64,000 nt of DNA from a virus (taxonomy: Duplodnaviria > Caudoviricetes), in IMG/VR virus record IMGVR_UViG_651053002_000003, positions 2,520 through 66,519 of that record. One strand, 5' to 3'. Both the position numbers and the translations under genes were made by a program. Shown here one piece after another: positions 3,074 to 60,386 of the stretch (its first letter is position 1; the number at the start of each line of letters is the position of its first letter). A model generated the notes under the pieces. The model was given only the letters and a program-made list of their open reading frames with translations, did not search any database and was not told where the DNA came from.

Positions 3074-3539
3074 AGATTGCAATTGGGGGCTTCTAGCTCC
3101 CTTTTTTAACTTCAAAAACCACTTCTTCGAGTAATATTAAAATATGAACTTACTATAGCGTTTTATTATTGATTATTTTGCCCAGTCCTCTCTGAATAAA
3201 AAAATCCTTTTATTGTGATTCTGTTGCCTTAATTAAAAATCTCATTCTTTCCTTCTTTGTTTTGGTGAAATCGTTGCATTTTTTCAAAATGTCCTGAAAC
3301 AAGTGAAATGGAATTGGATTTAAACCAAGGATTCTGACCTTATTACAATAGCCCCCGTAATAGGCTTACTCGTATTCCTTCTGCTCTGATCTTGAAGTAA
3401 ATGGATTCACTTGTCTTCTCCCTTCTGACTAACTAAATATCTTAATAACATTCTTTAATTCAACATTTAAATTCTGCGCCAAACAATGAAATGGCTTATC
3501 ATGTTGGTTCAAATGTTTATTCTCAAAGTGCGCTACGAA

Positions 3540-8504: not shown

Positions 8505-8913
8505 AAAAATATTTCCTTTCTATGCAATTTTTAGATTATTAAATTAGCAAGTTGCAAATGCCAGTCGAGATGAAAATTAATTACATGGTATCTTTAACTG
8601 ACCTTAGTTCTATCTCTACAATTGACTTTCATATTTTAAATTGTAACATGAGAGGCAAAATATGTGTTTAATTAAGTATGTAATTAAATCTCTCTTTGAG
8701 TTTAAACCATCTTAAAAATTAAGTCTCTTAAAATGACCATTAACATAAAAAAAGAACTTGCAAAATGCAGGTTCTTTTTTTATTGTCAATTTATTGTGAA
8801 TTTTTAACGACAAGGGCATTTTATGTATAGTATAATATTTCCTGTACATTAAAGCATGCTCACTCAAGGGAGTCTTGCTCACCTCCATGTCTCAAACAGA
8901 GGAGGTGAGGCCA

Positions 8914-8994
8914 ATGTCAACTTTTCAAGTATTAGTACTCATGCTTGGATTTGGGTCATTTATAATTGCATTGTTGACCTATATAAAAAAATAG
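8914..8994 (+). CDS. bsrE: BsrE-like type I toxin peptide (26 aa)
   Basis: MSTFQVLVLMLGFGSFIIALLTYIKK; GGAGG RBS with complementary CCTCC upstream; TATAAT near 8831. Confidence 0.85.
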   Translation: MSTFQVLVLMLGFGSFIIALLTYIKK

Positions 8995-9170
8995 ACCTCC
9001 CTTGAGCCCTGGAAAAGTTTAAGGGATGGTCTATTCGGTAGATCTGAGCAAGCCCTTTTGTGGGCAGCTTTAGTACAAACAATGACCTGTGGGTGTTGGC
9101 GCACCCCTGGTCTTCTTTTATTTTATGCATTTTTTAAGAAAGAAATACGCAACCAATCAAATGTCTTACA
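8985..9170 (-). ncRNA. SR5-like antitoxin RNA
   Basis: Convergent extended -10 TGtTATAAT (9177-9185, minus); overlaps the toxin 3' region as in bsrE/SR5; ends approximate. Confidence 0.6.
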
Positions 9171-44322: not shown

Positions 44323-45058
44323 CCACCATTTTTCTTAACATTGTAGCAATCTCATTTTCTTTGGTGTTTTCGTCGCCGCCGTTAATAGCCTTCTTGGTCT
44401 TCTCGATATTCAAGCGCATTTGTTCCAATTTAAGGCGCCGCTCATCTTGCTCATGCGCCAGCTGGTCAAATTGCTTGATCAAGCTCCGGAGCTCCCCCAT
44501 TGCCCGAGATTGAGCATTCAGGAATGCCGCCTGCTTATCCCATGCGAATTGTATATCGTGCTGCAGCTCTTCCACAAAGTGAGCTTTTGAAAGACTGCCG
44601 TCCTCATTTATGCTGAGGTCACCTTTTATTTTAGAGACAATTTTCGTAGTGTCGTTTTTATCCTGCACAAACATAATGCGTTGTGCCCGCAGAATGGCCG
44701 CGTATTGAATCTGAATTTGATCCCATATCATATCAGCAGGGGAACGCTCCTGAATCTCTTCCATGATTTCAAGCGTTTCTTCTGGCAGATACTTTGAGAA
44801 AAACCCATGCGAAACCGCGTTTCGATTTCTCTCCGGGGCGCCGCCGTTGTTCCCCAATGCATTTTTATTACCGGGTGGGGCGCCTGCTTTTTTTGTGTGC
44901 ACACTTTTTTCAGAGGGTGCACCCTTTTTTCGTTCCCAACCATGCCGCTGCTTCCATGATTTAATGGTGTTCACTGACACCCCGTACTTTTCGGCAAGGT
45001 CCTTGTATTTCATGCCTTTGGCGTAATCCTTATACGCCTGAATGTGCTTTTCAGCCAT
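44303..45058 (-). CDS. Terminase small subunit (YqaS-like)
   Basis: N-terminal [12 protein letters not shown] repeats. Confidence 0.88.
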
Positions 45059-45235
45059 CTACATCCACCGCCGCCTCCTTTTGAATTGAGTTGTTTTGGA
45101 AAAAGATATTCTCTCTAAACCGACGCCGCACTCAGACCGTTAACCGCCAATAGTTTTTCTGAGATTTACCGGAATCGGTTTACAGAGAACATAAAAAAGC
45201 GCCCCCAAAAGGAAAGCGCTACATGCTTGTTTTAT

Positions 45236-45547
45236 TTATTCTTCAGATACAAAATGCTCAGGAACAGGTTCTCTCTTCAGATTTCCCCAAGGAGTTACTA
45301 ACTTTTGGTCACGTACATCGTCTGACATGATAGTCACTATTTCATATTTTTTTACTTTATCCAGATTTTGTTTTCCAATTTCGAACAACCACTCATGAAT
45401 ATTAATATTTCGTAGATTACATGGTCCATTTGCTTGTGCTACATACGAAACCCGGACTTCCAATAAATAACGGCCGTCCTTTTTTAAATAAACCCCATCA
45501 TAGGAGCTTAATCGATCACTAATTTCATATTCAACACTTGAAGTCAT
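45236..45547 (-). CDS. Moron hypothetical protein
   Basis: Own TATAAT, GGAGG RBS and downstream terminator; TGTCGAA (0A box) at 45613-45619. Confidence 0.7.
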   Translation of the reverse strand: MTSSVEYEISDRLSSYDGVYLKKDGRYLLEVRVSYVAQANGPCNLRNINIHEWLFEIGKQNLDKVKKYEIVTIMSDDVRDQKLVTPWGNLKREPVPEHFVSEE

Positions 45548-45675
45548 TTTGTCACCCCTCCCCTACCAAATTATAGGTGATAACAAGGGACAAAGGAACA
45601 ATCTGCAAAATTTGTCGAACGAAAGCGTCCTTCATAAATAGGTGGCATTCACATTACAAAAAATTCAAAAGGTGA

Positions 45676-46314
45676 TTATTTTTTAATAATAATTATTTTT
45701 TTTGATGTATCGCAAACTTCATGAATTTTAATATCACTATAATTATTTAAGTTCAAGAAACCATATTCTTTTTCATTCAACGCTGCTAATTCCTTCGAAT
45801 GTTTTTTCTTTTTTTCAATGCACTCATTAATAAGCACTTCAATAAGGTTAAACTTTGCTGATCTTCCTTTTGTAGTAAACTCGATTACCTGGTAAAAAGC
45901 AAAAATTAAAATAAAAAAGGTACAAATGGCATAAACGAGAACTGAATATAAATCTGGACTTATCCTTAGAATGGTAGTGTCTTTAGTAATTGAATCAATC
46001 ATTGCATTTGATATTGTTACTGTCACCGTACAAACGGATAACAAAATAGTAAAAGGTATACTGATCAAACTTCTTATATCGCCCTCAACTTTTCTATTTG
46101 CTTTTAAACGATTAGACATTTCAATAAGTTGATCAAGAGAATGGTCATTCGTAACTTTCTGTTTGAATTTATCCTGTTTTCCGTTATTTTTTTTATATGC
46201 CTTTCCGTAATTTCTTTGCAAATAAACAGTTACACTTTTTGCTTTTTTATATTCTATTTTTCTTCTCCAGAAAAAAATGTACTTGCTAATCATACTCCAT
46301 TTCATAATCATCAC
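45676..46314 (-). CDS. AT-rich moron membrane protein (2 TM)
   Basis: 212 aa with two hydrophobic segments. Confidence 0.7.
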   Translation of the reverse strand: MMIMKWSMISKYIFFWRRKIEYKKAKSVTVYLQRNYGKAYKKNNGKQDKFKQKVTNDHSLDQLIEMSNRLKANRKVEGDIRSLISIPFTILLSVCTVTVTISNAMIDSITKDTTILRISPDLYSVLVYAICTFFILIFAFYQVIEFTTKGRSAKFNLIEVLINECIEKKKKHSKELAALNEKEYGFLNLNNYSDIKIHEVCDTSKKIIIIKK

Positions 46315-46323
46315 CTATGAAGT

Positions 46324-46350
46324 GTATCGGCAAACAAGAGTCATTTTTTA
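46324..46350 (-). promoter_or_regulatory. SigD-type promoter
   Basis: TAAA-N15-GCCGATAC. Confidence 0.65.
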
Positions 46351-46451
46351 GAAACAAATAAAAAGCTCTATACGAAATAAGAGCTTTTTGTTCACTATAT
46401 GAAATTGGTGGGGACGCAGGAATATTTCGCCTCCCCGTCCTGCCTTCCAGT

Positions 46452-46913
46452 TTACACTGCGGATTTTATCTGATTCAACAATTGCAAAAGCTGACACGTT
46501 TCGCACATTTGGCACAAATGGCACACAATATCATTTTTAATGCGTCTGACTGTTTCGCGGGAAACACCAAGATGCAGCGCGATTTCACGAAACTTCATCC
46601 CTTCTAACATGCAATCAAAGACAATCCGGTTTTTTTCGTCTTCTATTTCTTCAGTAGAGCGCTCAAGAAAATCAACGATAGTTTCGTATTTACGGAGCCG
46701 CTTTTCCCGACGATTCATCTGACGTAATTCCGCCTGGCTTATTCCGGCTGATCCTCTCGGCATTCCTGCTTCGTCACCGTAAGTAGCCACAAGCTTCTGC
46801 CCGGCAAACTCCACCTTGTTGAGAATGCGGCTCAATCGACTGATCTCCCGCAGCATAAAATTATAATCACGAATCCATTCTTCGATTTCCCAAGCCATCA
46901 TTTGATCAGACAT
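46452..46913 (-). CDS. Late-gene activator with sigma70 region 4-like HTH (YqaQ-like)
   Basis: [22 protein letters not shown]; end of the early region. Confidence 0.8.
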
Positions 46914-47119
46914 TATAAACTCTCCTTTTGTCCGTAAATAGAATATTTCTCATTCCAACCGTTCTTTTTTTGTTCTGCCAGATATTCGGTTTTAGATACT
47001 TCCTGAATTGTTAGGCTGCACTTTTCCATCAAGAAACTTTTCATATTCTCGAATAAATCTTCTTTTCCGCACAAAAGATTCACGATTTTCCCATTTTGAT
47101 TGGCGAATCCATACTTCAC
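46913..47119 (-). CDS. Hypothetical phage protein
   Basis: GGAG RBS and GTG start; coupled to the next gene. Confidence 0.55.
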
Positions 47120-47133
47120 ACCAAACACTCCCT

Positions 47134-47262
47134 TTATTTGCGTCTCAAAGCGCCACCCTTGCCTCTTTTCAGAGTTTGCATATTTTGTCCCATCATCCGC
47201 TGCCAAAAGCGATCTGATCGCTCAGAAACGTTTTTATCTGGCTCCTTTTTCTTCCGCTTCAT
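47134..47262 (-). CDS. Small basic phage protein (42 aa)
   Basis: Read manually: AGGAGG RBS, MKRKKKEPDKNVSERSDRFWQRMMGQNMQTLKRGKGGALRRK. Confidence 0.65.
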   Translation of the reverse strand: MKRKKKEPDKNVSERSDRFWQRMMGQNMQTLKRGKGGALRRK

Positions 47263-47277
47263 GTCATCCCTCCTGAT

Positions 47278-47357
47278 AACAAAAAACGGACACCAACCAG
47301 AGCGCAGAAAAAATTCTTGTGCAATGATCAGTGTCCGCAGGCTTTCCGTCTTGGACG
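47278..47357 (-). promoter_or_regulatory. Structured terminator-associated RNA motif, copy 1
   Basis: GTCCAAGACGGAAAGCCTGCGGACACTGA...TGGTGTCCGTTTTTT. Confidence 0.65.
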
Positions 47358-47463
47358 TATTTATTTTTAAGCTCTCTGGCTGCGTAATGCCAGCAGGCTC
47401 ATTTTTAACTCTTCATATGCTTATATTTTACCATAATCCGGGTTCAATAGGGTTACCAAATCA

Positions 47464-47754
47464 TTAAAGGCCGGCTTTCTCTTTATATTGCTCCCAAAAG
47501 CCGTTCACTTCATCCAAGTACCTTGTGGCCTCGGAGCTTTTGGTTTCAGCCTCTTCTCGAATTGCGTCAAAAGCCTCTTCGAATTCATCGGCAGGCGTCT
47601 TTAATATCTGATATTCGTTGGTAGCGAGGGCAGTTGCAAGAGCGACAGGATCAAGACGGTTTAACGGGGCCCATTCTCCCTGCCAATTCCCTAAGCTAAC
47701 GCTTTTCCGTAAGCTCTCAAAAGCCGCAGCCTGTTCTTTTGTTAATTGTAGCAT
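47464..47754 (-). CDS. Hypothetical phage protein
   Basis: GGAGG RBS, 96 aa. Confidence 0.65.
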   Translation of the reverse strand: MLQLTKEQAAAFESLRKSVSLGNWQGEWAPLNRLDPVALATALATNEYQILKTPADEFEEAFDAIREEAETKSSEATRYLDEVNGFWEQYKEKAGL

Positions 47755-47787
47755 TGTATTTTCCTCCGATTCTTCTTTGAATTTATC

Positions 47788-47868
47788 TTACTTCACAATG
47801 AATTTTGCCGATTCAAATGTTCCGATGTAGTTCCGCTTGCCAGAATCAGAGTAGCAGTCCAGCTGGAT
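47788..47868 (-). repeat. Diverged duplicate of the 3' end of gene 49643..50077
   Basis: Encodes IQLDCYSDSGKRNYIGTFESAKFIVK* versus ...ESAKFQIK*. Confidence 0.85.
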
Positions 47869-47882
47869 ACATTAGTTAGTCG

Positions 47883-47955
47883 AAACAAAAAACGGACACC
47901 AAACAAACAGCATTAAAGCTGGAAGTTCAGTGTCCGCAGGCTTTCCGTCTAAGAC
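47883..47955 (-). promoter_or_regulatory. Structured terminator-associated RNA motif, copy 2
   Basis: GTCTTAGACGGAAAGCCTGCGGACACTGA...TGGTGTCCGTTTTTT. Confidence 0.65.
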
Positions 47956-47959
47956 CCAT

Positions 47960-48598
47960 TTAATTAAAAATAAAAAAAGATGTAGAAATCAAAGTATAAA
48001 AAATCATGATTAACAAAGAATAAAAAATAAATTTTAAAGAGAGATTAACGCGTCTAGCTTTGTTTTCTCTTATTAATGAAACACTCCTCAATTCAGTAAG
48101 TAGAATTGACGTAATATCTTCAATGCTTAAATTATTAAACCTATTTCTGAAATCATTTGCTTTTTCGTTGTGTATTAATTTGGTTGAATCAGCAAATAAA
48201 TTATAAATAGTTGATCTTGGTTTTATACTTGCAATAAAGAATATGTTTTTCTGACGATCAGACAAAACTGTATCTTCACTTTCAAAGTATCTAGGTACAA
48301 TTGCTTTTAGAGACAACGTTACAGATAATAACATAAATATAATCCCGCAAAAAAATAAAAATATTAAACCGGAATGTATGGTTGAAGAAAAATGCGAATG
48401 CTCAGTTATCTTAAATAACCTTTTGTTAAAATCAATTATTTTTTCATTTATCGCACCAATATAGGCTAAAATTATTCCGACTAGAACCAAAACTGAAGCA
48501 GCTTTCGTATCTAAAAACCTAATTGTATTTTGCGTATCTTCCAATGCTTTATATAAAAAATCAAGCTTTGTTTGTTCAGTTGCTTGCTCGGTATCCAA
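47960..48598 (-). CDS. Pycsar transmembrane effector (PycTM-like)
   Basis: TIRFLDTKAASVL N-terminal motif, TM helices, SLIRENKARRV before the last TM. Confidence 0.8.
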   Translation of the reverse strand: MDTEQATEQTKLDFLYKALEDTQNTIRFLDTKAASVLVLVGIILAYIGAINEKIIDFNKRLFKITEHSHFSSTIHSGLIFLFFCGIIFMLLSVTLSLKAIVPRYFESEDTVLSDRQKNIFFIASIKPRSTIYNLFADSTKLIHNEKANDFRNRFNNLSIEDITSILLTELRSVSLIRENKARRVNLSLKFIFYSLLIMIFYTLISTSFFIFN

Positions 48599-48607
48599 AA
48601 ATAAACC

Positions 48608-49369
48608 CTACTTTCTATTTATCATGTATCCATTATAATCATTGTTCAACTTTATTTGAGAGAAAGATATTCTTCCGTTTTTACTTGATGGCCATAGGTC
48701 TTTAACCTTTTTACTTAGTAAGACGGACCCTCCTTCCCCGCTAGATAATTTACTAGCATCATTTATACAGCTCCCGAAAGCTTTAACATCATAAGTTTCA
48801 TTAGTACCAATCTTTGTTACTATTACATCACCATAATCAATTCCAATCCCACATTTAAACTCCCACAGTATGTTATCATTCTTTATTAAGGGGTTAACAA
48901 TCTGATCCAGCGCTTCTTGTATCTTCAAACCACACAATCCCGCATTTTGAGCTGAAATTGCTCTGGCTTCCCCAGAAAAACGCCCTCCAAAAAAGGCCAT
49001 AACTCCATCGCCAGTAAAATCAAGAACAACACCCTTATATTGTTCTATTATGTATGCTACAGCCGGATAAAAAGCATGATAGGATAGAAAAGTATTATTA
49101 GGTCCTAATTTCTTAGCTCTTTTTGTTGAATTTCTAATATCAACAAACATCACGCTAAAATTGTCGCGGTCATAAGAGCCAAAATTAAGTTTCTTTGAAT
49201 CATAACCAGGCACTGCATCTGAGATTGCAGAATTTGCTTCGTAGTGAACTTTTTTAAGTTCAACACTTTTTTTCGCAGCTGCATAGTTCTTCTTAACAAT
49301 TCCTTCTGCTTCGAGCAAAATTTTGTCCAAAATATCACTACCTTGTAGGTCTTTTACATTATTGTACAA
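48608..49369 (-). CDS. Class III nucleotidyl cyclase (Pycsar PycC-like)
   Basis: VMFVDIRNST, DFTGDGVMAFF, GIGIDYG, FGSCINDASKL; start codon uncertain. Confidence 0.85.
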   Translation of the reverse strand: MYNNVKDLQGSDILDKILLEAEGIVKKNYAAAKKSVELKKVHYEANSAISDAVPGYDSKKLNFGSYDRDNFSVMFVDIRNSTKRAKKLGPNNTFLSYHAFYPAVAYIIEQYKGVVLDFTGDGVMAFFGGRFSGEARAISAQNAGLCGLKIQEALDQIVNPLIKNDNILWEFKCGIGIDYGDVIVTKIGTNETYDVKAFGSCINDASKLSSGEGGSVLLSKKVKDLWPSSKNGRISFSQIKLNNDYNGYMINRK

Positions 49370-49461
49370 CTATTCAAGACTTTTAAAAACTCCTTTTCTA
49401 TTTTTTTGTTTTTTAAAACCCAGTAAAACGAGTTAATTCTGTTTACTACTTTTATGTTAAA

Positions 49462-49632
49462 TTATTTCTTTTTGTCTAAATACTTATCGATATCTTTAAA
49501 GTAAGCCGCAGCCGTAAATGAAATGATTGCCCCGATCAAAGCCATGTTCCCCTTCATATCCGCCCTATATTCGTCCTGGAAATAAAACCAGAATCCTAAC
49601 CCCATCATCATAAAAACTATTCTCAGCGCCAT
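49462..49632 (-). CDS. Small 2-TM membrane protein
   Basis: AGGGGG RBS, 56 aa. Confidence 0.55.
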   Translation of the reverse strand: MALRIVFMMMGLGFWFYFQDEYRADMKGNMALIGAIISFTAAAYFKDIDKYLDKKK

Positions 49633-49642
49633 CGAATCCCCC

Positions 49643-50077
49643 TTATTTAATTTGAAATTTAGCCGATTCAAATGTTCCGATATAGTTCCTCTTGCCGGAA
49701 TCAGAATAGCAGTCCAGCTGAATGACATAGGTTCCCTTTCCGGTCTTATTCCGGATCGTTTTCACGTTGAATGATTTCAGAGGCGTTGCCGTTTTGAAGC
49801 TGCCCCGCTGTACTAAGTTCGTATCAGTCAGCCCGCCGCCGCTTCGCTTCTTGTATACGCCGGCCGTGTAATAAAGTGTGCTTGATCCTTTTTTCTCGGC
49901 TTTCCAGTCCACCGTTGAGGCGCCGGCCGTGTAAGTCGCGGCATCCGTAAACACCCGGCCGCTGTACCCAGATTCATTTTGCCAGCCTGACCATGCTGCG
50001 GAAGCAGACGGCGCAACCGCCACCGCTCCCGTAAGTAATGCAGCTGATAGAATGATTGATTTGAATAGTTTTTTCAT
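49643..50077 (-). CDS. Secreted hypothetical protein
   Basis: Signal peptide ending ASA. Confidence 0.75.
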   Translation of the reverse strand: MKKLFKSIILSAALLTGAVAVAPSASAAWSGWQNESGYSGRVFTDAATYTAGASTVDWKAEKKGSSTLYYTAGVYKKRSGGGLTDTNLVQRGSFKTATPLKSFNVKTIRNKTGKGTYVIQLDCYSDSGKRNYIGTFESAKFQIK

Positions 50078-50211
50078 GACTGTTCCCCTTTCTTCATATA
50101 ACAAGCCCTTCTTTGTTCACAAATAATTAACATTTATTTACAAGGAAAATAATTACTTTCTGGTGTATATATTATGAGCAACACAAAAAACTTGAGAAGG
50201 AGTGTTTCAAA

Positions 50212-50562
50212 ATGAATTTCAAAAAAACGTTGGTTTCTGCTTTAACAGTATCAGCATTAGCTTTGGCGGTTAGTGGTGCAGCCTCTGCAAAAGAAGTACA
50301 GATTTCTCCAAGTAATACAGTGGAAAGCGTTGCGACTGTTTCCGGTCCTATCAAAGTACAAGACTATTCAGTTGATGTGGCAGTAGGTAAAACTGTAAGT
50401 GTAGCTAATCCAGTAGCTGAAACTTACTCTTCTGATGCTAGTGGAATAGCCAAAGTAGATAAATATGGTGTTGTTACTGGTGTTAGTAAAGGGACTGCCC
50501 ACATTACTTTATTTAAGTCTGATAGATCAATACTCGGAGTCGTAACTGTAAATGTAAAATAA
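50212..50562 (+). CDS. Secreted Ig-like (Big_2) protein, YjdB-like
   Basis: MNFKKTLVSAL signal; SSDASGIAKVDKYGVVTGVSKGTAHIT. Confidence 0.75.
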   Translation: MNFKKTLVSALTVSALALAVSGAASAKEVQISPSNTVESVATVSGPIKVQDYSVDVAVGKTVSVANPVAETYSSDASGIAKVDKYGVVTGVSKGTAHITLFKSDRSILGVVTVNVK

Positions 50563-50776
50563 TCTTTTTAATATTTCCAACCATCAAGAAGGGCCAAATA
50601 TTGGCTCTTCTTTTGGTTAGAATAACCTTTTGCCTCTTCACCTTACTCTCCCATTTATCCACACAAATTTCCTCCTCAGCGCCCATGACGCGCCCGCAAT
50701 GCGGGCAACAGGCATCTGCGCGGATTTCTAAATCAAATTTGGTGTAATCGCAGTCCGGGCAATGGTATTCGATCAT
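50513..50776 (-). CDS. Small zinc-ribbon protein
   Basis: CPDC...CPHC; C-terminal extension may be spurious. Confidence 0.5.
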   Translation of the reverse strand: MIEYHCPDCDYTKFDLEIRADACCPHCGRVMGAEEEICVDKWESKVKRQKVILTKRRANIWPFLMVGNIKKIILHLQLRLRVLIYQT

Positions 50777-51186
50777 TTACTATCCGCCCATTCATCAAAG
50801 CTGTAGGGGTAATCAACACTTTCAATGAAACCGATCTCCTTCGCCTTCTGACGGATTTTCATACAACCTTCATAGCTGTAAGCCCATATTTCTTTATAAT
50901 CCCTCAGCTCGCCGTATTTCCCTGTTATGATGAATTTTCTAAAGCTGTTGACCAGTTGCCACATGTTGCCTCCATGCGAAAAGCCGTTTGCACGCCCATA
51001 TCCCAATTCATACGGGTAAACATCACTCCCAGTGTAATCATCAACGAAGAACAGTTTTTTCTTAAACCTGAAATACGCTATCCGATTCTTTGACTTACAG
51101 TAGAAAATACATCTATCAATACTTGCGATAAGCTTGATCAAATCGTTTATGTCGTTCATTCGTTTCAATTGCTCTGCTGTTGCCAT
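50773..51186 (-). CDS. Hypothetical phage protein
   Basis: GGAGG RBS, GFSHGG motif. Confidence 0.7.
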   Translation of the reverse strand: MATAEQLKRMNDINDLIKLIASIDRCIFYCKSKNRIAYFRFKKKLFFVDDYTGSDVYPYELGYGRANGFSHGGNMWQLVNSFRKFIITGKYGELRDYKEIWAYSYEGCMKIRQKAKEIGFIESVDYPYSFDEWADSK

Positions 51187-51267
51187 GAGATTCCCTCCTA
51201 ATTAGCCTTTAGCCTTGTAAACTTGGTCATATGTTCACTTATTCATGGTTTTGTATATGAATTTCCC

Positions 51268-52107
51268 TTAAACGCCACACATGCCCTCACATTCATTCAA
51301 AAAGTGATCTATATCAAGCTGATCCTCATTGAAATTTACTTCCTCCAATGGCCGGCCTGACTTATGGAGAAAAGCATTATTTTTAAATCGCGGCAGCTTT
51401 CGGATAAGCCGGTCAATTTCCACTGCGTCTTGCCAGGAGGACGGGTCTTTCATCTTCATATCACGCCAGGCGTTGAAGTCATGGAAAGGGCAGCCGATGC
51501 AGCTGGACTTTGCCGGCGTTCCGAGTCCCTCACGCTCAACGTATGTAATGCAGCGCGACCGATCTATGAAGGCCACATCAACCAAAGGATGCTCTGCAAC
51601 TTGCCAGCTTTCCCTGCTTGGTTTAACTCGCTGGATTTCATCAGTGCTGATCCCTTTCCAGAGGTGAACAACTTCTTTGATGCGCTGCCTCGGCTTGTAC
51701 CCGAGCAATGAACGGATTTTCCGGTTAACCGGTAATATTTTGTATTCGTTTGTACATTGCCGACGGGCGATGCCTATTTCACCTTTTGAATCCCGCGTGA
51801 AGAATGGGATACTGGCGAAACGGTCACCTGTCTCAGCGCCTTGCACAATGTCATCACGAATGTTCCCATTATCAGTGAAGATGATCTCCCGCCCGTAAGT
51901 TGCCTTGATATGCTCGTTTATTTTCTCGATCCAGTTGTAAACGTGTTGCGGCTCCCATCCGGTATCCGAGAAAATAATGTAATCGGGTATAACGCCGTTT
52001 ATCTCACCTTTCAACGCCATGAGAAGAAGGGCCGTTGATTGTGTGCCTCCCCCGTAGGAGAGGACGTGAATATGTTTTTTGCCATCGTCGTACTGCTGTT
52101 TAATCAT
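51268..52107 (-). CDS. PAPS-reductase-like (PP-loop) phage protein
   Basis: LSYGGGTQS, FSDTGWE, RQCT..YKI, SSCIGCPF, C-terminal CEGMCGV. Confidence 0.75.
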   Translation of the reverse strand: MIKQQYDDGKKHIHVLSYGGGTQSTALLLMALKGEINGVIPDYIIFSDTGWEPQHVYNWIEKINEHIKATYGREIIFTDNGNIRDDIVQGAETGDRFASIPFFTRDSKGEIGIARRQCTNEYKILPVNRKIRSLLGYKPRQRIKEVVHLWKGISTDEIQRVKPSRESWQVAEHPLVDVAFIDRSRCITYVEREGLGTPAKSSCIGCPFHDFNAWRDMKMKDPSSWQDAVEIDRLIRKLPRFKNNAFLHKSGRPLEEVNFNEDQLDIDHFLNECEGMCGV

Positions 52108-53505: not shown

Positions 53506-53709
53506 CTATTTGAATTTGTGGCCGATCTCGTAATCACAACGAGCCAGGCCGCCTTTTATTGTTTGAATGATTGTTTTACCGTGTTCCGGGGCGTCCATTA
53601 AGTGGGCTGTCCCTTCAGTGCCATCTAAAACAATGATGCGGACTTTCCCCGGCTCGATGCTTTGCTGAATAGTTGTTTCATGATTTTTTATTTCTGTTGG
53701 CTTGTTCAC
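53506..53709 (-). CDS. XtrA/YqaO-family protein
   Basis: IIVLDG...APEHGKTIIQT.KG. Confidence 0.8.
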   Translation of the reverse strand: MNKPTEIKNHETTIQQSIEPGKVRIIVLDGTEGTAHLMDAPEHGKTIIQTIKGGLARCDYEIGHKFK

Positions 53710-59617: not shown

Positions 59618-59842
59618 CTATGCTGTGCTTGTATGAGATTCTTGTCCTTTTTGATTAAAAAAAAGTTCTTTAATATCACAATCTAGAATTTCAGCAACCT
59701 TAAAAGCATCTTCCATTTTAGGGGTAGAATAACCATTTTCCCAATTTGAAATAGTTGATTTTTTATACATAAGTTTTTCGGCTAAATTCTCCTGTGTTAA
59801 GCCTTTAGCTTTCCTTGCATTCACAAGTTTATAATTTTTCAT
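59618..59842 (-). CDS. Cro-like XRE regulator
   Basis: GLTQENLA...TISNWENG; divergent from the repressor. Confidence 0.85.
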   Translation of the reverse strand: MKNYKLVNARKAKGLTQENLAEKLMYKKSTISNWENGYSTPKMEDAFKVAEILDCDIKELFFNQKGQESHTSTA

Positions 59843-59855
59843 TGAGTCACCTCCT

Positions 59856-59979
59856 GTATAAGGAACTTGTACTTCATGACCTCATTATAGGTATAAGAAT
59901 CTTGTATGTCAATAATAATGTATGAAAAACTTGTACAAAAGCGTAATTTTTTTCTTTTTGTTGTACAATTACCTTGTAC
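59856..59979. promoter_or_regulatory. Lysis/lysogeny switch: four operators and the early promoter
   Basis: GTA(T/C)RAN-N3-CTTGTA(C/T) at 59856, 59891, 59920, 59963 (fifth at 59631); TTGACA-N17-TATAAT on minus strand at 59884-59912. Confidence 0.8.
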
Positions 59980-59999
59980 TAATTATGGAGGAAATCCAC

Positions 60000-60386
60000 A
60001 TGTTATCTAAAAGATTAAAAATTTGTCGTAAGCAAAAAAAACTTACTCAAACGGAGTTAGCTCAAAAGGTAAAAACCACTAAAGGTACTATAAGCAATTA
60101 TGAGAACGGACATAGCACGCCTTCTAATGAAATGCTTCGTGACCTTGCTGACGCCCTCGATACAACTACTGACTATCTATTAGGCAGGATTGATAATCAT
60201 ATGAACTTCATTAGGGAGTCATCTGAATTTTATGATACGTTTGGAGATGATGACTTACAACTCGCCTTTAGAGAAGCACGTGATTTCTCAGAAGAAAGTC
60301 AAAAACAAGCAATTGACTTTATAAAGTATCTCAAAGAGAAAGAAGAACGCGAAGGACGAAAAAGCCGAAAAAACAATAACGACTAA
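60000..60386 (+). CDS. Prophage repressor (XRE/ImmR-like)
   Basis: LTQTELA..TISNYENG..TTTDYLLGR. Confidence 0.88.
   Translation: MLSKRLKICRKQKKLTQTELAQKVKTTKGTISNYENGHSTPSNEMLRDLADALDTTTDYLLGRIDNHMNFIRESSEFYDTFGDDDLQLAFREARDFSEESQKQAIDFIKYLKEKEEREGRKSRKNNND

Follow-up and report, generated by a model that had tools for sequence, protein, structure and literature searches.

An RNA element that lies as a leader ahead of the late-activator gene is real and widespread in temperate phages of the Bacillales and in PBSX-like elements, and it is apparently new to the literature. We propose that the element is probably a conditional terminator, off by default and released by a putative factor, that gates the switch from early to late transcription.

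The two copies in the window and their terminators

The window that we analyzed, the whole stretch of 64,000 nucleotides, holds two copies of this element on its minus strand, as an earlier reading of the letters alone (here called the sequence-only reading) had noticed. Copy A is at 47883..47955 and starts 4 nt past the stop codon of a PycTM-like gene, and copy B, the leader of the late-regulator module, is at 47278..47357 and ends 18 nt before the ATG of a 42-aa basic ORF. The 20-mer GGAAAGCCTGCGGACACTGA occurs at exactly two sites in the window, 47328–47347 and 47927–47946, where none is expected with up to three mismatches allowed (100 dinucleotide-preserving shuffles), and the entire 66.5-kb provirus record holds no further copies of the element. 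We used two covariance models, R1 from 88 of the 89 distinct type I sequences (see below for types) and R2 from a more diverse alignment; copy A scores 91.1 bits with R1 and 88.2 bits with R2, and copy B scores 86.0 and 85.8 bits.

The pairing of CGGACAC with GTGTCCG ahead of a U-run, which had been proposed from the letters, is the base of a long hairpin in both copies, and in each the hairpin is followed by a 6-nt U-run (UUUUUU). The copy B intrinsic terminator (47281..47337, minus strand) has its stem at 47337–47287 and its U-run at 47286–47281, and the copy A terminator on the same strand has its stem at 47936–47893 and its U-run at 47892–47887. The hairpin energies of the two copies are −33.3 kcal/mol (z −4.4) and −35.0 kcal/mol (z −6.4), and none of 200 shuffles gave a fold as stable as either copy. 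Both copies thus have what defines an intrinsic terminator, a stable G+C-based hairpin directly 5′ of a U-run. The insert that the sequence-only reading had called variable is present and is the apical part of this hairpin. In a family alignment that was fitted to the terminator helix, pairing is kept in 96.3% of 938 cells, and both sides have changed in 137, compared with 30–39% paired when the partner is slid by 1–3 columns. The terminator helix of the element is beyond doubt, and its 3′ arm ends in ...GUCC(G)UUUUUU. With this fold and the position of the family at the entry to the late-activator module, the earlier description of a structured RNA fused to a terminator is borne out.

The element has no match in Rfam 15, either at gathering thresholds over the entire window or at E values up to 10 over 47150–48050. 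The only Rfam 15 match in the window is BsrG, at 8847–9098. We found no description of the element in the literature available as full text, a scope that leaves supplements and the 1990s subscription-journal work on PBSX and phi105 outside.

The 5′ hairpin and its overlap with the terminator

Within the B. subtilis group, the 5′ part of the element is nearly invariant, which is partly an effect of the search pattern, and the near-identity of the type I 5′ part among these phages could owe much to recombination at the module boundary. We used diverged members of the family to read the 5′ structure, and four sequence types were seen: type I (GUCC-AAGAC-GG-ARAG-CC-UGC-GGACAC), type II (GUCC-AAGAC-CG-AAAG-CG-UGA-GGACAC), type III (GUUC-UA-CCAG-CCMA-CUGG-A-GGACAC), and a GCCU type (GCCU-..-CCG-....-CGG-A-GGGC). 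A single hairpin fits all four types, in which an outer helix, P0 (GUYC × GGRC), encloses an internal loop and a short helix, P1. In copy B, this antiterminator hairpin is placed at 47333..47356 by the MFE of the isolated 5′ segment and by pair counts, with P0 between GUCC (47356–47353) and GGAC (47336–47333) and P1 between GG (47347–47346) and CC (47341–47340), all on the minus strand; in copy A, P0 on the same strand is between GUCU (47955–47952) and GGAC (47935–47932). When the 5′ segment is folded in isolation, a P0-closed hairpin is obtained in five of the seven variants tested.

The sequence-only reading had taken the conserved 5′ part to be unpaired, and this did not survive the diverged members, which show the P0/P1 hairpin there. 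It had also described a GTC-nnA-GAC mini-hairpin, the letters of which are present and the helix of which is broken in type III and in one other locus (L223). A different mini-hairpin, UCC/GGA, which RNAalifold gives for type I sequences, was rejected because type II has the G→C change without a compensating change.

P0 was outside the structure of both covariance models, so its pairing was not fitted. Over 59 distinct sequences, P0 is 96.6% paired, compared with 36–46% in slid controls, and every change within it leaves the two strands able to pair as RNA (opposite G, C becomes U; U-A becomes U-G or C-G). P1 covaries between members as GG/CC, CG/CG, CCAG/CUGG, CAAG/CUUG, CGG/CCG, and CUGG/UCAG, and the inner P1 pair is GC in 25 cases, AU in 21, CG in 8, and GU in 3. 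In 500 shuffles, neither the percentage paired nor the covariation score ever came up to the observed value, and the pair-count result was similar with a less diverse set. P0 is only 4 bp long, and the terminator places a constraint of its own on the P0 3′ strand; in the machine alignment, only one of the 59 rows has P0 fully changed on both sides, and a second case, L281, is in a row misregistered by one column, as is the row of L253.

The pattern of substitution bears on whether the element works as DNA, that is, as an operator, as a promoter for a phage sigma factor, or as a recombination linker by which cargo and late modules are swapped. Such a feature would fit with the place of the element at the edge of a cargo hotspot and with its presence in duplicate around inserted cassettes, and recombination here is real. 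In the window, an 80-bp duplicate of the 3′ end of a 153-aa secreted-protein gene lies just after copy A (47788..47868, minus strand) and is a recombination scar, with the full copy of the gene preceding the cargo (49643..50104, minus strand) and a 96-aa ORF lying between copies A and B (47464..47754, minus strand, phrog_4224); two copies of the element are also present in L009, L013, and L023. However, the substitutions preserve pairing at the RNA level, with G-U wobble among them, and C-A or A-G opposite the partner strand never arises. Between members, the apical stem differs by some 20 nt in length, which is incompatible with a fixed half-site spacing. In addition, the phage's own operators are different repeats, at 59855–59980, and a 14-nt phi105 operator motif is at chance level in the window (8 matches compared with 6.5 expected). 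We consider a DNA-level function quite unlikely, and a linker role can coexist with an RNA function.

In types I–III and in the GCCU type, the terminator 5′ arm opens with the same four bases that make up the P0 3′ strand, and thus P0 and the terminator are mutually exclusive. In L258 and L281, the middle strand is GGGC, P0 is GCCU/GGGC, and the terminator 3′ arm is GCUC; both partner strands go along with the altered middle strand, and each has its own wobble pair. In L288, where the element lies directly 5′ of an Xpf-like gene, UCCU/AGGA and UCUG/CAGA make the 5′ hairpin, and AGGA is common to it and the GGAGC/GCUCC terminator. An attenuator is expected to have a conserved second helix built in part from nucleotides of the terminator stem, and such a helix is therefore found in types I–III, the GCCU type, and the L288 type. 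RNA with P0 enforced is less stable than the terminator state by a median of 7.0 kcal/mol (0.8–15.0, n = 59), a gap of a size that a bound factor could close; for the two copies in the window, the gap is 12–13 kcal/mol, partly inflated by pairing of the A-tract with the U-run.

An overlap of this kind is also found in ON riboswitches such as the adenine-responsive pbuE leader, where a closing helix competes with the terminator 5′ arm and the outcome is decided during transcription. The closing helix of the element likewise shares bases with the terminator 5′ arm, and P0/P1 would then be an aptamer of very small size whose ligand, a metabolite or a nucleotide, signals the state of the host. However, the domain is only about 24 nt, and its loops and bulges differ wholly by type (AAGAC...ARAG...UGC compared with UA...CCMA...A and A...AAAAC), leaving no common pocket; the conserved unpaired nucleotides that a ligand pocket would need were not found across types I/II, type III, and L288. 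With no Rfam family match either, we regard a riboswitch as highly improbable.

Distribution, gene neighborhood, and proposed mechanism

Two deposited phages match the region, phi105 (KY197768) and PBP180, a PBSX-like defective phage of B. pumilus (KC847113). In PBP180, the element is between ORF5, which is XtrA-like, and ORF6, annotated as a “positive control sigma-like factor,” and in phi105 a secreted-protein gene precedes it and a small basic ORF follows it, with an ArpU-type gene next. An exact-pattern scan of IMG/VR found the element on at least 120 viral contigs, and adding the window and both phage records to these contigs gives a viral set of 127 instances with 105 distinct sequences. 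The conservation in other phages on which the sequence-only reading had staked its case is thus found. When one genome per species was scanned with a 19-mer, 94 stretches were obtained, and nearly all came from the groups of B. subtilis, B. pumilus, and B. licheniformis; 14 of the listed 19-mer matches are in unrelated MAGs or genera, where about 9 chance matches are expected in 596 Gb, and the one of these that was tested (L201) has no covariance-model match. In one family, searches with R1 place the element in at least 63 of 91 genomes, and a single genome can have as many as 10 copies; searches with R2 place it in at least 34 of 151 genomes sampled from the order, both counts being lower bounds because Infernal's stricter filters were used.

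A homologue of a late regulator is encoded within 1.5 kb downstream on the same strand in 120 of the 127 listed instances, and of the other seven, four have less than 900 nt of downstream sequence and three have none. The regulators fall into three groups: Xpf-like proteins (NF005385, “positive control sigma-like factor,” with PBP180 ORF6 at 206 bits), ArpU proteins (TIGR01637, 84–149 bits), and sigma-r4/GerE proteins of 137–153 aa. The window has a member of the third group, a 153-aa sigma-like protein and candidate late activator (46913..46452, minus strand; Sigma70_r4 at 25 bits, phrog_1058 and phrog_36 as a transcriptional regulator, and TIGR02937 at 30.8 bits, which is under that model's cut-off). 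Copy B lies ahead of the 42-aa Lys/Arg-rich ORF directly 3′ of it (47262..47134, minus strand), then a 67-aa ORF (46913..47116, minus strand), which has 61–62-aa homologues downstream of the element in other loci, and then the activator candidate, in agreement with the order that had been noted before.

The ribosome site begins 10–30 nt past the U-run, and where the regulator or the basic ORF is the first downstream gene, the start codon is 14–31 nt past the U-run. We found no sigma-A-like site between the copy B terminator and the next gene, and promoter-like sites in 45000–51500 are not above chance (14 compared with 17.8 expected). Every early gene, starting with the cro-like gene (59842) and running to the late genes, is encoded on the minus strand, as is the element, and therefore transcription of the activator must cross both copies. 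In RNA contigs from two runs (X1 and X4), the region is covered in pieces that are broken inside the repeated motif, and at the level of raw reads one run (X21) gave 0 reads over the region and another (X24) gave 4, from a relative.

Upstream of the element, the genes are highly diverse. The upstream ORFs form 71 clusters among the 202 instances that have one (of 221, a set that includes chance 19-mer matches); the largest cluster, with 66 members, is XtrA, and the rest are clusters of membrane, defense-like, and unknown proteins. Upstream of copy A in the window is a Pycsar-like defense pair (47960..49369, minus strand), made up of a class III nucleotidyl cyclase (48608..49369, minus strand; Guanylate_cyc, 39.4 bits) and a PycTM-like membrane protein (47960..48598, minus strand; PycTM, 18.1 bits, under the cut-off).

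With no candidate promoter between the terminator and the gene, and with a 5′ part that is predicted to antagonize the terminator by pairing with its 5′ base, conditional termination is the best reading. In the mechanism that we propose, each copy is a cis-acting RNA switch in the transcript that leads from the early operon, and from any cargo genes, to the late-activator module. The 5′ hairpin, P0 with P1 inside it, would form first during transcription, and the 5′ GUCC of P0 and the GUCC of the terminator 3′ arm would then compete for one GGAC. The predicted energies suggest that the terminator wins in undisturbed RNA, so RNA polymerase would halt 10–30 nt short of the ribosome site of the late-activator module. 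The lethal late program would thus stay silent in the lysogen while the upstream cargo, here the Pycsar-like pair, is expressed, and default termination would shield the lysogen from read-through out of the cargo genes. During lytic growth, some factor, most likely an early protein of the phage, would keep P0/P1 closed, the last 4–5 bp by the U-run could not form, and the resulting read-through would allow the activator to be made. The sequence-only reading had also assigned the element to a conditional terminator at the early-to-late transition, and structural overlap and position still favor that assignment; the analysis shows the family, its position, the terminator and P0/P1 helices, and their overlap, and from these we infer that termination is the default and that a factor regulates read-through. 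Attenuation coupled to translation through the upstream stop codon was rejected as a general mechanism, with a stop-to-element gap of 19–45 nt in PBSX-like elements. In B. subtilis, transcription and translation are uncoupled.

The same neighborhood might be explained by an insulating terminator that is constitutive and needs no factor, where the activator is made from a fixed leak and the 5′ hairpin either sets that leak or serves the 3′ stability or processing of the upstream mRNA. The terminator helix is strong and favored by a median of 7 kcal/mol, no factor could be pinned down, and hypervariable cargo whose stop codons are mostly 0–25 nt before the element fits with a terminator at the end of a cassette; a strong constitutive terminator that leaks a little also fits the position. 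On the other hand, a constitutive terminator could do without a conserved strand upstream that imitates its 3′ arm, but this strand is kept in four sequence types and changes together with the base of the terminator. PBSX-like elements carry the element between xtrA and xpf, without cargo, and a fixed leak from lysogen-active cargo promoters into a lethal activator would be costly. We view a constitutive terminator as possible but doubtful, and we continue with conditional termination as the reading that we favor.

Candidate factors and related systems

An XtrA/YqaO-family gene (53506..53709, minus strand; PF17356) is located in the early operon of the window, 6.1 kb upstream of copy B. Where the sequence of a viral instance reaches at least 5 kb upstream, an XtrA-like ORF is found there on the same strand in 47 of 51, the exceptions being L019, L069, L081, and L107, and where it reaches at least 8 kb, in 28 of 30; the XtrA-like ORF is within 60 nt of the element in 39 of 87 cases. 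At order-level loci, XtrA is found in 26 of 27, 15 of them within 1.5 kb and 11 more within 8 kb, with two of these 11 farther matches being weak (18.6 and 23.7 bits). When longer upstream stretches were fetched, XtrA was found in 12 of 13, one of the 13 being a family-level locus. Of the 151 order genomes, 34 have the element, 34 have a Pfam XtrA, and 26 have both; of the eight with XtrA only, six proved to have the element once they were searched without filters, and in L289 and L287, searched with filters off to 8.2 kb and 2.6 kb downstream of the XtrA gene, respectively, no element was found. Any two components of a single prophage family would be expected to show such linkage. By gene order only, XtrA is our leading candidate for the factor, and a speculative one.

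The structure of XtrA adds little. By sequence, the protein has no solved relative and its only Pfam match is PF17356, and by residue count it is not basic. The AlphaFold model has five strands (pLDDT 79); a Foldseek comparison with the PDB gave no match (best E 3.4), and a wide VIA-align search gave a best Z of 3.5 and matched no known RNA-binding fold. A search of the ESM Atlas with XtrA returned XtrA/YqaO, DUF3954, and DUF2292 clusters only. The predicted fold is thus uninformative, and the lack of fold matches is no evidence for a new fold. We also made a quick tree of XtrA, of which we use the topology, with 18 rows whose regex element is false and the rows without a regex element left out. 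It has two well-supported clades, and clade B contains the XtrAs beside type III and GCCU elements together with six XtrAs of the B. subtilis group that lie 11–13 nt before type I elements. Clade B therefore spans element types, and the type of 5′ domain follows the host group and not the XtrA clade. That the 5′-domain type tracks the host group points to a host factor, to recognition of a shape common to the types, or to homogenization by recombination.

A second candidate is the Arg/Lys-rich peptide encoded downstream, which the sequence-only reading had named as a candidate RNA binder beside its nut/put-like terminator, and which would in that case drive antitermination, possibly with positive feedback. 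The 42-aa ORF belongs to a family of 40–70-aa basic proteins with a conserved C-terminal motif, it follows the element directly in 61 of the 127 listed instances and in several other genera, and a feedback loop driven by leak is conceivable. However, the peptide is encoded downstream of the terminator, and it is absent in 66 of the 127 listed instances, including all that are PBSX-like and all in which an Xpf-like gene is directly next. Its C-terminal motif is the same beside type I, type III, and GCCU-type 5′ domains, and it has no detectable relative by family or fold, with no match in Pfam, PHROGs, NCBIfam, or the PDB and no lead from the ESM Atlas. We think it improbable that the basic peptide is the factor that holds the hairpin; a host factor, or no factor at all, takes up the rest of the probability that is not given to XtrA or to the peptide.

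The nut/put comparison itself fares no better. The nut sites of the lambda nut/N system and the put sites of HK022 lie close to the promoter and alter polymerase, which can then run through many terminators at a distance; nut is a bipartite boxA-boxB site bound by an N-type protein, and put RNA is two stem-loops that act in cis on polymerase without a protein. The element is like them in being a phage RNA element in an early transcript that is proposed to let polymerase reach later genes, but it is fused to and overlaps a single terminator and is repeated once per terminator, two times in the window, which is attenuator-like and unlike a processive, distant-acting site. Its architecture also differs from that of HK022 put. 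No relative of boxA/boxB or put was detected in Rfam at E values up to 10, and no N-like family was found among the early ORFs. Taken together with the distribution of the peptide, this makes a nut/put-like site served by the peptide improbable as well.

The closest likeness is to the RAT/terminator attenuators of the BglG/SacY/LicT type, in which a short imperfect 5′ hairpin overlaps the terminator 5′ arm, termination is the default, and stabilization of the hairpin gives local, non-processive read-through. The element has the same architecture, a small hairpin that shares bases with the terminator 5′ arm, but RAT attenuators serve sugar catabolism whereas the element would serve a phage early-to-late switch, and there is no likeness in sequence. 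No CAT_RBD or PRD domain was found by Pfam in 22 early ORFs and 11 neighboring ORFs. By analogy, the element appears to act locally through an overlapping helix, as RAT attenuators and ON riboswitches do and unlike nut/put, and it is a member of none of these by the features tested. The genes that the element precedes include those of the RinA/ArpU/Ltr super-family and Xpf of PBSX. In the parts of the study of this super-family of Gram-positive phage late regulators that we consulted (Quiles-Puchalt et al. 2013, PMC3753634), a terminator is described after the regulator gene, and a structured leader upstream of the regulator gene is not described.

The late activators RinA, ArpU, and Xpf are known, but the control of their expression is not, and the element offers a concrete and conserved control point for it, which precedes three activator families and is present in classical systems of the B. 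subtilis group, phi105 and PBSX-like. The element also offers an explanation of genome architecture, where the slot upstream is a hotspot for variable cargo, including defense systems, which has to be transcribed in the lysogen while the late program stays off. In Bacillales prophages, a match to the covariance model shows where cargo gives way to late genes, and the RNA of the element is a candidate portable conditional terminator. We put forward, as a tentative idea with the odds against it, that XtrA, a 65-aa all-beta protein whose gene is retained close upstream of the leader in prophages across the Bacillales, is a new kind of RNA-binding antiterminator that would clamp P0/P1 and time the early-to-late switch in PBSX, skin-like, and phi105-like elements. 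If this is true, XtrA and the attenuator would be a Gram-positive counterpart of the Q/N logic of lambda, built on a local attenuator, and the same switch would be an insulator that permits defense cargo to be carried ahead of a lethal late activator.

The small basic protein gene behind the element

The conserved hairpin and U-run RNA element, a candidate switchable terminator, can be followed by a small basic-protein gene; wherever this gene occurs, the leader precedes it and the late regulator comes after it. The encoded proteins form a Lys/Arg-rich family of 40–70 aa, whose members are the window protein (47134–47262, minus strand), the protein at 3192–3365 of locus L003, and those of loci L231, L242–L244, L252, L253, L258 and L259. 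They have in common the C-terminal motif ..L.ERD..ELMG.NRPTY.R..GA.RQ., and the family has no relative in Pfam, PHROGs, NCBIfam or PDB.

When contigs of RNA-library run X4 were placed on the window, one contig (47128–47286) spanned the basic ORF, and its edge fell exactly on the first U of the copy B U-run, while 47287–48081 was without any assembled contig. The depth of this contig was 7, and given this depth the edge may reflect patchy assembly; alternatively, RNA processing or a start site at the U-run may have created a 5′ end here.

One Bacillus genome (G001, C1) carries two diverged element copies (L223, 183626–183713, and L225, 244103–244190; 50.3 bits) that are identical to each other and 60 kb apart, each with a small basic ORF about 280 nt to its 3′ side. 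These copies are possibly prophage remnants.

Other features of the window

A BsrG RNA lies at 8847–9098 on the plus strand (Rfam RF01412, 128 bits); in the SPbeta prophage, BsrG is known as the RNA component of a type I toxin-antitoxin locus. Direct repeats of a 19–21-nt GTATAAG.A.CTTGTAC-like motif, in 3–5 copies at 59855–59980, separate a divergent cro-like gene (59842..59618) and repressor gene (59922..60386) and probably serve as operators for the immunity switch. The N-terminal domain of a 279-aa early protein (51268–52107, minus strand) resembles PAPS reductase (26 bits), and an ORF related to this protein sits upstream of the element at L256.

Cargo upstream of the element

By domain matches, a two-gene Pycsar-like defence cassette occupies 47960–49369 on the minus strand. 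One gene encodes a 253-aa class III nucleotidyl cyclase, the other a 212-aa membrane protein that is PycTM-like, with a PycTM match under the Pfam cut-off. The pair is cargo, with the early genes on one side of it and the leader of the late regulator on the other. Directly after copy A, an 80-bp duplicate (47788–47868, minus strand) of the 3′ end of a 153-aa secreted-protein gene (50104..49643, phrog_8287) is the scar from the recombination that introduced this cargo.

Across loci L005–L218, the 202 ORFs upstream of the element fall into 71 protein clusters, and many are membrane or defence-like proteins of 200–460 aa; in several phages (L009, L013, L023) two element copies flank an inserted gene. 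The slot immediately 5′ of the element is a hotspot for cargo.
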